From IMG/VR virus record IMGVR_UViG_3300047089_000152, positions 40,151 to 104,150 of that record: a stretch of DNA of 64,000 bases; one strand, given 5' to 3'. Below the pieces are notes generated by a model. The model saw only the letters and a list, made by a program, of their open reading frames with translations, made no database searches and was not told where the DNA came from. The translations under genes were made by a program, and so were the position numbers. Positions 3,170 through 24,117 of the stretch are shown here, piece after piece. Source of the DNA: a virus. The first letter of the stretch is position 1; each line of letters begins with the position of its first letter.

Positions 3170-3303
3170 GGACCGGAAGGGAAAGGCTGGGCGCGGCAGG
3201 CATCGCAGCGGCCGGGATAGCAGCGGATCGGAGCGGCAGGACAGGATTGGCAGGGCACGGCTGGGCTAGGTGTGGCTGGGCTGGGAACGGAATGGATTGG
3301 ACA
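3170..3303 (+). ncRNA. GGH-NN pentamer mini-array (2 units), putative guide RNA
   Basis: 13 pentamers, GGCAG-GACA delimiter at 3235, then 12 more pentamers. Confidence 0.75.
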
Positions 3304-3370: not shown

Positions 3371-4036
3371 ATGCCACCACGCAAGACCACCACAGGCGGA
3401 CCAGTCCAGCTCACCAGGCTGGCAGAAGAAGTCGCCCAAATCCACATCGCCGGGGCTACGCCACTTATTATTCATAAATGGTCGGAAAAGGCGCTCAACC
3501 AGATGCGGATCGCCCAGTCCGGGGCAATTAAGCCGCCCCGCGAACCCAAGAACGCCGAAGAAAACGCCCACGCGGCAACATACTGGGTCGACGTCGCCGA
3601 GACGATCCCCGGCATCCCCAGCGTCTCATTCAAGGCCGCCATGGTCGGAGCCTGCCGGTTCTTCGACGGCCTCCCCATGACGACAGCAAAATTGCTGTTC
3701 TTCGTCGACGGGGTCGTCAGCGAAGCCAAGGGCGACGCGCCAGCACGCGACCTGCTCGTCCCGATTATCTCCGGCCCTGGGGAAATGCGGGAAGACACCC
3801 CGCGCAACGACAACGGAAACCCGGACCTCCGGTACAGGAATCAGTTCTTCCCGTGGAAAGCCGTACTCAACGTGCGGTTCATGCCCGCGAAGATCGCCCC
3901 CGAATCCGTCATCGCGCTAGCTGACGCCGCCGGTCGTGGCGGTGTCGGAGAATGGCGTCCATCCGCACCGAAAAGCGCGACTGGCACATACGGCCAGTTT
4001 CGTGTCATCACCCGGAAGGAATGGGAGTCGGCCTAA
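3371..4036 (+). CDS. stand-alone Cas7/RAMP-like protein, putative guide-RNA-binding filament
   Basis: N-terminal strand IAGATPLIIH, GIPSVSFKAAM (cf. RAMP IPxSSxKG helix), C-terminal glycine-rich loop GRGGVGEWRP...GTYGQFRV; flanked by repeat arrays. Confidence 0.7.
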   Translation: MPPRKTTTGGPVQLTRLAEEVAQIHIAGATPLIIHKWSEKALNQMRIAQSGAIKPPREPKNAEENAHAATYWVDVAETIPGIPSVSFKAAMVGACRFFDGLPMTTAKLLFFVDGVVSEAKGDAPARDLLVPIISGPGEMREDTPRNDNGNPDLRYRNQFFPWKAVLNVRFMPAKIAPESVIALADAAGRGGVGEWRPSAPKSATGTYGQFRVITRKEWESA

Positions 4037-4644: not shown

Positions 4645-5923
4645 GGAGTGGAGGGGCAGGGACTGTCGTGGCAAGGAACGGCAGGGCACGGAGTGGATTG
4701 GCAGGATAGGCTCGGCGCGGCCAGGCGGGGAGCGTTTCGGAGTGGCATGGATTGGCTGGGACTGGCAGTATCGGATCGCAGTGGTCAGGGTAGGCAAGGC
4801 CCGGCCAGGCGGGGCTCGGTATGGCCTGCACTGGCGGGGAACGCAATGGAGTGGCAGGACCGGTGTGGAATGGCTGGGACGGGAACGGCGCGGTAGGGAA
4901 TGGAGTGGCAGGAACGGTGGGGCCGGGCGCGGCGCGGCTAGGCTCGGCGCGGACGGGCATGGATTGGCTGGGCAGGACAGGATCGGAGAGCAGGGGGCTG
5001 GCGCGGCATGGCACGGAGAGGCAGGAGAGGAACGGTCGGGACAGGAGCGGCAAGGAGCGCACCGGCAGGCAGCGGCAGGGAATGGCATGGAACGGACTGG
5101 ATTGGCAGGACAGGACCGGCATGGCCAGGAGGGGCATGTCCTGGAATGGAATGGCAGGAATGGCTGGGTACGGCGGGGCCGGGCGAGCATTGGACAGGAC
5201 CGGCAGTCGCGGAAGGGCTCGGCAGGGACCGGATTGCAGCGGCGAGGATGGGCTAGGCAGGAGCGGAACGGCAGGGCATGGCCTGGATCGGAGCGGCTGG
5301 GCAGGATAGGCATGGATCGGCCTGGGTAGGCAAGGAGGGGCTGGGACGGGACCGGATTGGCAGGGCAGCAGTGGAGAGGCAAGCCGTGCAATGGCGGGGC
5401 GGGGCGTGGCATGGACTGGACCGGCAGGACTGGACTGGACTGGATTGGAGAGCAGGGCAGTGGCAGGGATCGTAGGGGTTCGGACGGGCAGGTTAGGCTT
5501 GGACGGGCTAGGCGTGGCATGGGCCGGCAAGGAACGGCTCGGAGCGGCAGGGATTGGCACGGCTCGGAGTGGCAGGACCGGACGGGTACGACGTGGCGTG
5601 GCTGGCATTGGCAAGGACTGGCAGGAGTGGATTGGCAGGGCCGGGCTTGGCATGGCGTGGCTGGGAATGGCGTGGCAGGACAGGTGGGGCTTGGCGGGCC
5701 GGGGATCGGCACGGATGGGCATGGCATGGCCCGGTAGGGCATGGCAGCATTGGACTGGACCGGACCGGCAAGGCTTGGCTTGGCTGGGATCGGATGGGAA
5801 CGGCAGGAGCGGAGCGGACTGTCGTGGCATGGCATGGCCTGGCGTGGCGCGGATCGGACGGGCAGGATAGGTCGGGCGTGGAATGGAACGGACGGGCTGG
5901 GCATGGAACGGCAGGATAGGAGT
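4645..5923 (+). repeat. main GGH-NN pentamer array, about 21 units, putative multi-guide precursor RNA
   Basis: strict 5-nt periodicity; GGCAG+4-nt delimiters at 4700, 4764, 4853, 4907, 4971, 5020, 5104, 5153, 5202, 5256, 5300, 5364, 5423, 5487, 5571, 5620, 5674, 5743, 5802, 5861, 5910; all spacings are 5n+4. Confidence 0.92.
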
Positions 5924-21025: not shown

Positions 21026-21484
21026 TCAGGTACCAGCGATACCGGAAGACGGGTAGCGGATGATCGGCGTTGCAGCATTCCACGTCGACTTCAGGCTGAC
21101 CGCAGCGGAGACACCACCAGCAACCGAGTAGTCCGGCAGGACCGCGCCGAAGAAGTACTGGCCGGGGGCGGTGCCCTGCGCACCGATAGTCGACGGGTAC
21201 AGGTACATGTTCCGCGAAAGACCATCCGTCGCAGCCACATACGTCTGCGCCGTGGCCGTGTCATAGAACCCCGAGAAGTCACCCGACGCGTCGGGCAGGC
21301 CAGCGACCCAGATCAGGTTCGGGTCACCCATCGCGGTCACGTCAACCTTGTTCACCACGAAGTTGATAGACCAGTCAGTCAGAAACGCCATCGGCGACGC
21401 GATAGCCGTACCGGTAGCGAGACCACCACCGGGACCGGTGACCCCGACGTAAACGATCCCGTTACGACCGTGGATACGTGACAT
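21026..21484 (-). CDS. major tail (tube) protein
   Basis: SRIHGRNG...DWSI...DVTAMGD...GLPDASGDFSGFYD. Confidence 0.85.
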   Translation of the reverse strand: MSRIHGRNGIVYVGVTGPGGGLATGTAIASPMAFLTDWSINFVVNKVDVTAMGDPNLIWVAGLPDASGDFSGFYDTATAQTYVAATDGLSRNMYLYPSTIGAQGTAPGQYFFGAVLPDYSVAGGVSAAVSLKSTWNAATPIIRYPSSGIAGT

Positions 21485-21502
21485 TTGCTGTGCTCCTTCT
21501 AC

Positions 21503-22558
21503 TCAGTGTTCCAGGAGTTCCAGCAGGCGTTTCGCGTTGCTGGTGAACGTGCGGTCAGCGATAGCCTCACGCGCTTTGTATGCCGCCTGTTCCCGTTCAC
21601 TATCGTGGGCGAGCCACCAGCGGATCTGATCCCCTGCCTCTTCCGGGCTGGAGAACGTAGGGAGCATGTCCAGCACCGAATCCCCCTCCGCGCGGGGATC
21701 GCGGAGGTAGAAAAGCCCGCACGCCGCTTGTTCCACCTCACGGGGCCCCATCGCCCACGGGACGGCGGTGCTGTCAGCGTCCGCGTCGTCGTATTCGCGG
21801 CGGTAAAAGTTGATGCCGCACTTCGCGTTGCGGTACACCTCGGCCACTTCGCTGTTGTCGACACAGTCGTCAATGTCATGGCCCATGAACCTGCGCAGCG
21901 GAGACTTCGACGCCCCCGGCCAGCAGCCCCCCAGCAGCACGTCCAGGCCGTCCAGGTTCATCCGCTCGAAAAAGTCGATGCGGGACTGGAACCCCGTCCC
22001 GATGAACGCCAGGTCCGCCGCGAGGTCCACGTTGACAGGGCCCGTGCGAGGGTAATGCACGGAAGGCCGGTACGCGTGCGGCGCATACTCCGCGACGGCA
22101 CCTAGCTCCCGGTACTGCTCAATGTTCACCGGGTCGTTCAGCAAGACGATGTCGCTGCATTCCGCGCGTTCCAGCTGCATCTTTTCCTGGTACGGCGACT
22201 CGGTGGCGAGCAGGACAACTTTCATCCGCCGCTGCTGAAGCAGGGCCATCAGCCCCGGGGTGACGAAGAAACCGGAAACGAAAATAACCGCGTCTGGCCA
22301 GAACGTGAAAGCCGCATGAGAGATGCCCTGCATCGCCATGCGCAGCGCGTCCTCGTCGTTCATCGCCCGGCGTACCAGCGGGTGCCCCGACTCGTCCACG
22401 TCCCCCGTGGAAATCAAAGCATGACCGTAAAATTGTATACGATCATCAGAATTAAAACTGGCAACTTCACACCCAAGCTCCCGCAGCGCCTCACACCAAC
22501 CGTCATGCACATCAGCCACAGAAAAATTTGGGCCTGGATGTACCACTAGTATGCGCAC
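21503..22558 (-). CDS. glycosyltransferase (CgeB / Glyco_trans_1_2-like, GT-B)
   Basis: DLAFIGT...R, YRNAKCGINF, GPREVEQAACG; likely GTG start at VRILVVHPG. Confidence 0.8.
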   Translation of the reverse strand: MRILVVHPGPNFSVADVHDGWCEALRELGCEVASFNSDDRIQFYGHALISTGDVDESGHPLVRRAMNDEDALRMAMQGISHAAFTFWPDAVIFVSGFFVTPGLMALLQQRRMKVVLLATESPYQEKMQLERAECSDIVLLNDPVNIEQYRELGAVAEYAPHAYRPSVHYPRTGPVNVDLAADLAFIGTGFQSRIDFFERMNLDGLDVLLGGCWPGASKSPLRRFMGHDIDDCVDNSEVAEVYRNAKCGINFYRREYDDADADSTAVPWAMGPREVEQAACGLFYLRDPRAEGDSVLDMLPTFSSPEEAGDQIRWWLAHDSEREQAAYKAREAIADRTFTSNAKRLLELLEH

Positions 22559-22582
22559 GGAAGCATCATCCTGTCCTAAGTG

Positions 22583-22591
22583 TGGTAGGAT
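22583..22591 (+). promoter_or_regulatory. extended -10 promoter of a mini-array
   Basis: TGGTAGGAT, 7 nt before the first pentamer. Confidence 0.65.
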
Positions 22592-22598
22592 AGTAATT

Positions 22599-22667
22599 GC
22601 ATTGGAGGGGCATGGCATGGCACGGCCCGGAGTGCTGGGGTGGGGAACGGAATGGATGGGCAGGATA
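22599..22667 (+). ncRNA. GGH-NN mini-array (1 unit), antisense to the late operon
   Basis: 12 pentamers + GGCAG-GATA, intergenic. Confidence 0.8.
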
Positions 22668-22689
22668 GATCCAGGTTGGTGCGCATCTT

Positions 22690-23100
22690 TTACAGGTGCG
22701 CACCAACCTGGATCAGAAATGAGCATCCCATGTATTGCTGGCCGGCGTATTCGGTGAGTCCGTAGGTCATCACCTGCAATACGACCGTGAACTCCACCGC
22801 CCCGCCCAGGGTCGGGTCAGCCTGCACCGCCGCGTTGATGCTTTTAGTACCGGACGTGGACACGTAGTCGTCGATTACGTCCTGGCCGGAAGCGTCGTTC
22901 GCGGCGGATACCAGCACGACGGCGAGGAGATTGACCTGGGTTTCGCCGTCCATCGTGATGCCGTAATTGACCGCTGGCCGGTTCGGGATTATGACCGCGC
23001 ATGGCGGTATGACCTGCCCGGGTGCGATCGCGTGTACGTTCAGCCCGGTGGTGGATAGCCGGGTTGCGAGCGCGACCCTGATCGCTTTGACGTTAGCCAT
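22690..23100 (-). CDS. tail terminator / tail completion protein
   Basis: position; SINAAVQADPTLGG motif. Confidence 0.7.
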   Translation of the reverse strand: MANVKAIRVALATRLSTTGLNVHAIAPGQVIPPCAVIIPNRPAVNYGITMDGETQVNLLAVVLVSAANDASGQDVIDDYVSTSGTKSINAAVQADPTLGGAVEFTVVLQVMTYGLTEYAGQQYMGCSFLIQVGAHL

Positions 23101-23181
23101 CTACGGGCGGTCCTTGCATGTATGGCCCTTCTTGGTCCAGTAGACCTTCCCGCATATGCCGCACGCTTTCGTCATCCCCAT

Positions 23182-24117
23182 CTATACGCCGACTTTCCCG
23201 CGGCCTCTGATGTAGCAGCGGAGCTGCTCCGCGATCCACGGGTTAGGATTCAACCGGACAATGCCGAGGTCAGCCATACCCATGACACCCCAGGGGGCGT
23301 CTTTCAGCTTGAACCAGTCCGAGGCGATCAGCAGCGCCGCCTGGGTAACCACGGGCGGGACCTGCGGCCAGCCGAACACGCCGGTGATCTGGACCCGGTC
23401 GAGGTGGACGAACGGCCAGATGAACGGGAACCAGTTCGACTGCCCGATCACCTGAACCTGCGTGTACGGTTTCGGTTCACCGGAGGCGAGCTGGTTGAAC
23501 TGGCCGTCGCCGACGCGGAGCATGTAGTTGGTGTTCTGCGTCCATGTCGTCTCGTACACCCCGTCCCCGTCACTGTCGATTTTCAGGGACGTGACGGACA
23601 CCAGGTCATCGACGGGGAGCAGCCAGATGTCCTGCGGCTGGTATGTGCGCGTGTCGGTGAACCGGAAGAAATGCCTCCCGCAGTACGTGTCAATCCACCG
23701 TGACGTCGCCAGGCAAACCGAAGCGATCACCGAATCGGTGGCAGGGTCGGTTTGCCCGAGTCGGTCTTTCAGCTCCTCGGGTCCCACGTACCAGCGTGGC
23801 TGGTCCAGCGCCAGTACCCGCCACGTTCCGGGCTGCACATCTGATGCGGTACCAGTGCCGATGAAGGCGTAAGACCAGAGGCCGTCGATGTTTGCGACCG
23901 CGGGGGAGCACGGCACGATCAGCTGGTACACGCCCGTGCTGGTCTTGGTGATGTCAGCCGGGGCAGTGCCAGCGAAGGTGTGGATTGTCTGGGTTGCGGC
24001 CGGGTCGGTGATTACGCACGACACGGCGGTCGGGTCGGTGGGGGTGCCGGACACGGTGAATGTCGCGACGATCGTGGCAAGCTCGTTCACATTGTCGTAA
24101 AACACCGTCGCAGTCAA
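23182..24117 (-). CDS. head-tail adaptor (gp6/gp15-like) with N-terminal Ig-like domain
   Basis: YVGPEELK...SRWIDTYCGRHF...FGWPQVPPVVTQAALL. Confidence 0.8.
   Translation of the reverse strand: MTATVFYDNVNELATIVATFTVSGTPTDPTAVSCVITDPAATQTIHTFAGTAPADITKTSTGVYQLIVPCSPAVANIDGLWSYAFIGTGTASDVQPGTWRVLALDQPRWYVGPEELKDRLGQTDPATDSVIASVCLATSRWIDTYCGRHFFRFTDTRTYQPQDIWLLPVDDLVSVTSLKIDSDGDGVYETTWTQNTNYMLRVGDGQFNQLASGEPKPYTQVQVIGQSNWFPFIWPFVHLDRVQITGVFGWPQVPPVVTQAALLIASDWFKLKDAPWGVMGMADLGIVRLNPNPWIAEQLRCYIRGRGKVGV

Follow-up and report, generated by a model that had tools for sequence, protein, structure and literature searches.

Introduction

CRISPR mini-arrays of archaeal viruses serve superinfection exclusion between related viruses, and T-even phages harbour free-standing homing endonucleases and display marker exclusion. 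The closest described counterpart of the locus presented here is VIPR, reported in 2026, in which a phage-encoded Cas7-like protein, Vipr, of a minimal RAMP fold bearing a G-loop and a thumb, polymerises on vrRNAs built of GGY/NN pentamers. The NN dinucleotides pair with double-stranded DNA and every third target base, usually the wobble base, is skipped; natural targets are called at an NN match of at least 80%, no self hits are found at that level, and silencing is abolished when NN pairing is perturbed (bioRxiv 10.64898/2026.04.26.720920, 10.64898/2026.04.26.720927). Staggered vrRNA arrays are depicted in fig. S18 of the first of these preprints (bioRxiv 10.64898/2026.04.26.720920). According to the VIPR preprints of 2026, the pocket of SUSP1 Vipr excludes purines at unit position 3, the G-loop residues provide the guanine contacts, and SUSP1 R-loop formation proceeds 3' to 5', with 'a related consensus' to GGY being allowed for other VIPR types. 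So far, the natural role of VIPR has been demonstrated in a single coliphage together with its satellite. A further class, the solo or orphan vrRNAs, is defined by the absence of Vipr, either from the whole contig or to a distance of 20 kb (bioRxiv 10.64898/2026.10.15.759431).

Here, we analysed 64,000 nucleotides of a 104-kb phage genome (positions 40,151 to 104,150 of IMG/VR virus record IMGVR_UViG_3300047089_000152; hereafter, the window). An initial reading, made from the sequence alone (the sequence-only reading), had noted a pentamer mini-array at 22599 that matches the adjacent tail-terminator gene, and had described it as a promoter-bearing antisense cassette next to a glycosyltransferase (GT) gene inserted in the tail module. 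The features discussed below are collected in table 1.

Table 1. Features of the window that bear on the cassette at 22582–22714 (window coordinates).
Feature	Position	Strand	Description
candidate Vipr (RAMP/Cas7-like) protein	3371..4036	+	AF2 model pLDDT 88.8; phrog_4652
main staggered vrRNA array	4645..5919	+	pentamer pattern, GGCAGGATAG boundaries
GT gene	21503..22558	-	351 aa from GTG at 22558; PF13524, E 8e-13
site in GT gene of this phage (RMKVVLLATESPYQEKM)	22178..22228	-	16/17 versus the guide of relative L003
extended -10-like promoter motif GTGGTAGGAT	22582..22591	+	7 nt upstream of first guide unit
guide tract of putative vrRNA	22599..22658	+	12 pentamer units GGxNN
3' boundary motif GGCA/GGATAG	22659..22668	+	common to main array
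hairpin	22668..22714	+	RNA fold; 21 bp, 5-nt loop
tail-terminator gene	22690..23100	-	136 aa; phrog_17840, E 1.4e-27
near-target in own tail-terminator gene	22981..23016	-	codons 29-40 (QVIPPCAVIIPN), 8/12 dinucleotides (67%)

Pentamer arrays and a candidate Vipr protein

In the window, the pattern of GG recurring every 5 nt through 6 units has 117 occurrences where 0.09 would be expected, and every one of them is on the + strand. The pentamer arrays comprise a main array of 1.3 kb and short arrays at 3170-3303, 6989, 22599, 39356, 46426 and 50304; further ones were seen outside the window on the - strand (G000 C1 33354-33408 and 22986-23035), in the 40 kb to its left.

For the candidate Vipr protein, the Foldseek top hits were Cmr4, Csm3 and type VII Cas7 (E 1e-5, prob 1.0), and the only PDB sequence hit, a weak one (E 0.56), was SUSP1 Vipr 36pp_D, in an alignment that covers the G-loop GVG[D/E]WRP (GVGEWRP in the candidate versus GVGDWRP in SUSP1 Vipr). 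The gene ends 18.6 kb from the start of the 22599 array, on the same 104-kb contig, and relatives encode a Vipr 93% identical to it (P0044). Mycobacterium and Gordonia phages carry this Vipr clade, and the host is accordingly likely to be an actinobacterium; the structural relatives infect Rhodococcus and Pontimonas. In Mycobacterium phage Saal (NC_023580.1, Cheoctovirus, M. smegmatis), a GGCNN array with TGGCAGG punctuation is located directly upstream of gp51 (L116:2590-2840), which is 47% identical to the candidate of the window, and proteins of the gp51 type were retrieved in 33 phage records (Mycobacterium, Gordonia and other).

Anatomy of the cassette

From 22599, the + strand proceeds in strict 5-nt steps, positions 22599-22668 reading GCATT GGAGG GGCAT GGCAT GGCAC GGCCC GGAGT GCTGG GGTGG GGAAC GGAAT GGATG GGCAG GATAG. 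The first 12 of these units, a number within the published vrRNA range of 9-16, form the guide tract, and their last two bases (TT GG AT AT AC CC GT GG GG AC AT TG) are identical to the guide dinucleotides listed in the sequence-only reading. The tract is predicted by RNA folding to be unstructured. Two of its properties count against its use as a weapon: units 1 and 8 start with GC, the other ten with GG, and the third base (A in six units, C in four, T in two) is a purine in half of the units, outside the pyrimidine of the GGY consensus of VIPR. Units starting with GC are, however, present in the main array too, and the homologous cassettes of two relatives (L001 and L003) have one as their unit 1.

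The 3' boundary is shared with the main array: GGCAGGATAG is found five times in the window against 0.05 expected, namely at four boundaries between units of the main array and once at the end of the 22599 tract. The next two NN after the guide tract (AG, AG) do not extend the target match described below. The same guide was sought in other arrays and nothing was found, and the main-array guides, crudely split at GGCA/GG, gave no strong match to the tail-module loci.

Upstream of the guide, the motif GTGGTANNNT has 10 matches in the window versus 4.6 expected. Four of these precede an array, namely those at 3170, 22599, 39356 and 50304, by 17-29 nt. It is also kept in the homologous cassettes, as TGGTATTAT in L001 and TGGTATGAT in L003. 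As a sigma-70 scan of the cassette retrieved no full consensus promoter, it is this conservation, at three other arrays and in two relatives, that suggests GTGGTAGGAT to be the promoter of the 22599 tract, in keeping with the promoter-bearing cassette first proposed. Further GTGGTACnnT copies, at 1713, 54100, 57392 and 60552 (+), stand away from arrays and may be other promoters of the same class.

Downstream, the 131-nt region 22595-22725 folds at -57 kcal/mol (z -4.6), with the hairpin as its dominant element. With its 3' arm, this hairpin covers, in antisense, the stop codon of the tail-terminator gene and the 7 codons before it, and the cassette as a whole is convergent with, and antisense to, the late operon; the description of a gapped-code guide in antisense orientation holds. 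The hairpin is the probable terminator, or 3' structure, of the vrRNA. No U-tract follows it, which again weighs against a weapon, nor was a SUSP1-like pseudoknot tail seen after the tract, and an Rfam search gave no family match. Hairpin sequences differ among the dispersed arrays of the window.

Other identities were considered for the tract. It was first read as a TRAP/CsrA-like protein-binding repeat RNA, or as G-quadruplex DNA, with a chance match to the neighbouring gene, and this was dropped after the permutation tests and the VIPR preprints. A coding role was rejected as well: several frames are open across the pentamer tracts because the repeat avoids stops, but they have no family hits. 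A CRISPR mini-array, that is, direct repeats of approximately 24-40 nt separated by contiguous spacers, is ruled out by the 5-nt period, the lack of any longer repeat unit or contiguous spacer and the lack of an Rfam family. The pentamer guide, the RAMP-fold protein and the boundary motif of the main array together identify 22582-22714, as far as sequence can tell, as a vrRNA gene of the phage's own VIPR DNA-silencing system, whose transcript would be expressed and loaded.

Match to the adjoining tail-terminator gene

The sequence-only reading had placed the match of the guide at 22981-23016, read as xNN. It was recovered exactly there, the reverse complement of the site translating to QVIPPCAVIIPN, with the skipped base always falling on codon position 3. 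The guide decodes to Q-I-V-P-P-T-G-V-I-I-P-N, from which the phage's own copy differs at four codons (V30, I31, C34 and A35), and the site lies 323 nt from the array.

The match also withstood a shuffled control, in which the order of the 12 dinucleotides was permuted and both strands were scanned. The probability that a permuted guide attains a maximum of at least 8 was 0.016 in the window, 0.0225 in the whole 104-kb genome and 0.001 within +-1.5 kb of the array, and none of 2000 permuted guides scored 10 in genome-wide scans. The real guide has no other match of 7 or more anywhere in the 104-kb genome. Skip lengths of 0 and 2, as well as a reversed unit order, gave a maximum of 7, and a skip of 3 finds the array itself only. 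This proximity is not peculiar to 22599: for four of the six dispersed arrays of the window, the best match in the genome is at most 0.7 kb away (permutation P of 0.02 or less each).

Alleles of related phages

The guide was compared with the tail terminators of 21 related loci (14 from IMG/VR and seven from metagenomes) and with 42 protein clusters, 41 of them related to the phage's own, drawn from 5.8 billion proteins. Because the guide reads codon positions 1-2, match counts follow from the amino acids, and for relatives available as proteins only (P0003-P0011, including P0008) the NN match was inferred in this way.

As predicted, relatives can fit the guide better than the phage that carries it. 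The closest relative, L001 (82% amino acid identity), presents QVVPPIGVIIPN and matches at 10/12 (83%), followed by L002 with QVNPPTAVIIPN at 9/12, while more distant relatives, with various motifs, match at 5-7/12. Among the 42 clusters, two reach 10/12, namely the protein of L001 and P0008 (QIVPPAAVIIPN, by codon inference), and five reach 9/12, L002 included. Each of the four states in which guide and self differ (I30, V31, T34 and G35) exists in relatives of at least 72% identity, and I31 is found in the phage's own allele alone among the 42 clusters.

The exact allele spelled by the guide, QIVPPTGVIIPN, on the other hand, was found nowhere: IMG/VR, JGI metagenome contigs, 596 Gb of prokaryote genomes (GTDB) and the 42 clusters contained no allele at 11/12 or 12/12, which counts against a weapon. 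A search of IMG/VR with the discriminating half of the guide gave 94 matches, all in unrelated sequences, the best of them (10/12) in a non-homologous context. The 2.8-kb region had no match in a DNA search of a cultured-phage collection, and the tail-terminator profile detected no prophage relatives in genome contigs.

Two further points temper the comparison, both to the detriment of a weapon. The own allele is not the worst fit, as three of 11 close relatives and most distant ones score lower, so that the self-sparing signal is weaker here than in L003 (see below); and the best natural matches, at 10/12, barely pass the published 80%. The pattern by which VIPR targets are called, with a foreign match of at least 80% (L001, 83%) and an own-genome maximum of 67%, is nevertheless present, with a thin margin and no perfect target known. 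The better fit to rivals of the 22599 guide is real but moderate.

Column entropy places the mismatched codons of the tail terminator among the variable ones, yet not the most variable, and no hypervariable hot spot is therefore claimed. Between L001-L021 and window 21026-24117, the tail terminator is the least conserved of four neighbouring genes, with 59-82% amino acid identity, versus 65-87% for the GT, 76-96% for the major tail protein and 73-84% for the adaptor.

A different guide in the same slot

In L003, the cassette occupies the same slot and carries a different guide, of 17 units (array L003:2758-2842, -). Here the fit is to the other flanking gene, the GT, again with the skipped base at codon position 3. 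This guide matches the GT of the window's phage, L004 and L125 at 16/17, that of L008 at 15/17 and those of L001, L002 and L007 at 14/17, versus 12/17 for the GT of L003 itself (L003:3224-3274). The GT gene of the window's phage is thus a predicted target of the L003 guide.

The deficit of L003 against its own guide consists of two Leu changes from CTN to TTG and one Ser change from TCN to AGT, all synonymous, together with one K-to-S replacement. Changes of the type Leu CTN to TTG and Ser TCN to AGT are the only synonymous ones that alter codon positions 1-2, and escape from a wobble-skipping guide requires changes at precisely these positions. The GT gene of L003 has three TTG codons, two of them in the guide target, a joint probability of approximately 0.003 given its own codon usage. 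For the tail terminator of the window, where V, I, C and A stand against I, V, T and G, there is no synonymous route, and the substitutions are conservative.

The junction between tail terminator and glycosyltransferase

The tail terminator has the head-tail adaptor gene upstream and the GT, then the major tail protein, downstream. A GT gene lies between tail terminator and major tail protein in 21/21 related loci. It is therefore not a recent insertion into the tail module but a clade-wide gene. That better-matching phages might lack the GT is likewise not supported, given its presence in all 21 loci. As to the cassette, L001, the best match, has one of its own in the same slot, and L002 has none.

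What varies is the junction itself. It measures 7-18 nt in L004 and L007, and holds a small Cys-rich ORF in L002 and L005 and other sequence in L008, L014 and L021. L001 and L003 carry a homologous cassette there, again in antisense orientation; L125 and L127, which are more distant, have a further gene at this place and no cassette. The site seems to be a hot spot of small insertions. Both homologous cassettes retain the TGGTAnnAT motif and the hairpin, with compensatory changes, and the hairpin is missing where the array is missing (L002, L004 and L007).

Several details of these inserts may be recorded. In the cassette hairpin, the outer arm repeats the last codons of the tail terminator (...VGAHL-stop) in inverted form and covaries with them between the window and L001 (hairpins compared: window 22668-22714; L001:1038-1092; L003:2728-2790). 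In L003, a small ORF is found between gene and hairpin, and the hairpin keeps a remnant coding for GAHL-stop. The small Cys-rich ORF of the junction (...FVFYGK..C.CGHKLKRV) occurs at L002:588-696, L005:3037-3154 and L003:2613-2730, and a different Cys-rich ORF, of 48 aa, lies upstream of the tail terminator (window 23093-23239, also in L003-L006). The L001 array (L001:1085-1160, -) looks like a diverged GT guide of the L003 type, its units 2-7 being almost identical to units 1-6 of L003; a 1-nt insertion breaks its 5-nt phase and its 3' half is shortened. Its first eight units match every GT at 6-7/8, the GT of L001 itself at 7/8, and it may be a disarmed cassette.

Proposed function and alternatives

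With the anatomy of the cassette, the statistics of the match, the allele comparison and the parallel case of L003 directly in view, we consider it probable that 22582-22714 is a self-contained VIPR guide-RNA gene aimed at sibling phages and kept beside a resistant allele, with its expression, loading and silencing deduced from the sequence. The vrRNA would have the sequence of the + strand, and thus run antisense to the late operon, and would be coated with Vipr, whose gene is 18.6 kb off, each unit taking up one protomer. The resulting filament would read double-stranded DNA at two bases in three, bind the tail-terminator gene of co-infecting relatives and block transcription of their late (tail) operon. 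The own allele would be spared, with four of 12 dinucleotides mismatched, including those of units 10 and 11 near the 3' end: a match of 67% is below the published 80%, and the two 3'-proximal mismatches would fall where the SUSP1 R-loop starts. The 80% threshold is that of the published VIPR systems, and the mismatch threshold of the present VIPR type is extrapolated from it. By keeping the guide beside the resistant allele, weapon and antidote would be co-inherited under recombination, and this linkage would stop recombinants from targeting themselves.

Beyond this single cassette, we tentatively suggest, as a possibility still short of an even chance, that the junction accommodates interchangeable cassettes for RNA-guided allele exclusion, the guide of each being directed against one flanking gene in the form carried by rivals. 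The carrier's copy would be recoded, synonymously where the code allows (the GT of L003) and otherwise conservatively (V30/I31/C34/A35), and in mixed infections the cassette would silence the late operon of the rival and spread with its resistant allele in a gene-drive-like manner without a nuclease. Sibling phages would then be mutually armed, as the 16/17 match of the L003 guide to the GT of the window's phage may indicate.

Several other explanations of the same locus deserve attention. The cassette could be a true vrRNA gene that now silences nothing, either because the target allele disappeared or moved on or because the guide drifted, and that persists since its hairpin and its position do the late operon no harm or even some good. 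The ceiling of 10/12 in every collection searched and the two GC-initial units are in line with such a relic, and the L001 array, visibly broken by a 1-nt phase shift, indicates that decay does happen in this slot. We nevertheless find it unlikely for the cassette of the window, where promoter motif, exact boundary 10-mer and hairpin are all intact and the four non-self states of the guide are all live alleles in close relatives. GC-initial units, moreover, are shared with the main array and with unit 1 of the L001 and L003 cassettes, and this group of soil phages is thinly sampled (14 IMG/VR loci).

Much less probable is self-regulation, in which weak binding of VIPR to the own 8/12 site, or plain antisense or convergent transcription, would adjust when, or how strongly, the phage expresses its own late operon. 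Although the best match in the own genome is indeed the adjoining gene, and the cassette converges with the late operon and overlaps the stop codon of that gene with its hairpin, published systems have no self hits at 80% or above and lose silencing when NN pairing is perturbed. Besides, relatives match better than self, the same operon is retained in L002, L004 and L007, all of which are free from the cassette, and the synonymous recoding of L003 away from its own guide is the opposite of what self-regulation would lead one to expect.

The cassette could also supply a decoy, that is, a vrRNA that soaks up or redirects the Vipr of a rival, like the solo vrRNAs of satellites, instead of arming the phage's own. 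Solo vrRNAs that neutralise the VIPR of a helper are documented (bioRxiv 10.64898/2026.10.15.759431), and with a Vipr 93% identical in relatives (P0044) cross-loading is plausible. Such a role is however highly improbable in a phage that has its own Vipr and a large array, whose boundary motif the cassette shares, the more so as the guide matches a phage gene family and not a multi-copy host repeat (no hits in 596 Gb of genomes). Chance resemblance of a G-rich repeat to its neighbour gene can hardly be entertained: 8/12 is a modest score and several arrays had been inspected, but the permutation controls reject it both genome-wide (P 0.02) and locally (0.001), the register skips precisely the wobble base, the nearest relative matches at 10/12 at its homologous site, a score that none of 2000 permuted guides reach, and the same adjacency holds for three other arrays of the window and for L003.

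If the cassette does act as a guide-RNA gene against siblings, the locus offers a clean and testable case of sibling-versus-sibling targeting of essential structural genes, with the guide placed physically beside the resistant allele of its carrier. The Leu and Ser recoding in L003 would be a signature of selection to escape a wobble-skipping guide, a type of guide supposedly blind to synonymous change. A variable slot in which guides are exchanged while promoter and terminator stay would also bear on how vrRNAs gain new specificities. Since cultured phages of Mycobacterium smegmatis possess this Vipr clade and have GGCNN arrays next to it, these proposals are bench-testable, and such phages could provide a tractable model of this VIPR type.

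Comparison with known systems

VIPR itself is already known from the 2026 preprints, and the resemblance of the present locus to it (bioRxiv 10.64898/2026.04.26.720920, 10.64898/2026.04.26.720927) extends to the pentamers with fixed GG and variable NN, the 12 units, the one-base wobble skip, the Cas7-like effector in the same phage, the lack of a self hit at 80% or above and the predicted targets, which are related mobile elements. Unlike in published VIPR, the third base is A, C or T and not a pyrimidine only, and vipr is 18.6 kb away from the guide gene, which is embedded in the tail operon with what appears to be its own promoter. The guide gene ends in a plain hairpin instead of the pseudoknot tail of SUSP1 VIPR, and it stands 323 nt from the carrier's own near-target, a layout absent from the VIPR preprints. 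Indeed, the three preprints (bioRxiv 10.64898/2026.04.26.720920, 10.64898/2026.04.26.720927, 10.64898/2026.10.15.759431) contain neither a promoter-bearing vrRNA cassette in the tail operon of a VIPR-positive phage nor a guide adjoining the near-target of its carrier, nor different guides in one conserved slot against either flanking gene, nor synonymous recoding of the carrier's allele.

With the solo vrRNAs of VIPR-null SUSP1-like phages and F5 satellites (bioRxiv 10.64898/2026.10.15.759431), the cassette shares a single guide in its own regulatory context, away from the VIPR operon, and some of those solo vrRNAs also target genes of relatives. However, since a Vipr is encoded on the same genome 18.6 kb off, the 22599 tract falls outside the definition of that class. 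Their targets, moreover, are vipr, vrRNA loci, satellites and host REP repeats (bioRxiv 10.64898/2026.10.15.759431), whereas the predicted target here is a structural gene with a resistant copy next door.

Virus CRISPR mini-arrays offer a parallel in being short stand-alone guides against close relatives, with the carrier's copy mismatched; they differ in that the present locus has no CRISPR repeats or contiguous spacers, that the effector would be the phage-encoded Vipr and that the expected outcome is silencing and not cleavage. Finally, while recognition would be RNA-guided and no nuclease was identified, the arrangement resembles that of the T-even homing endonucleases, in which a weapon gene lies beside the resistant allele of its target and is directed at the sensitive allele that a relative brings into a mixed infection.
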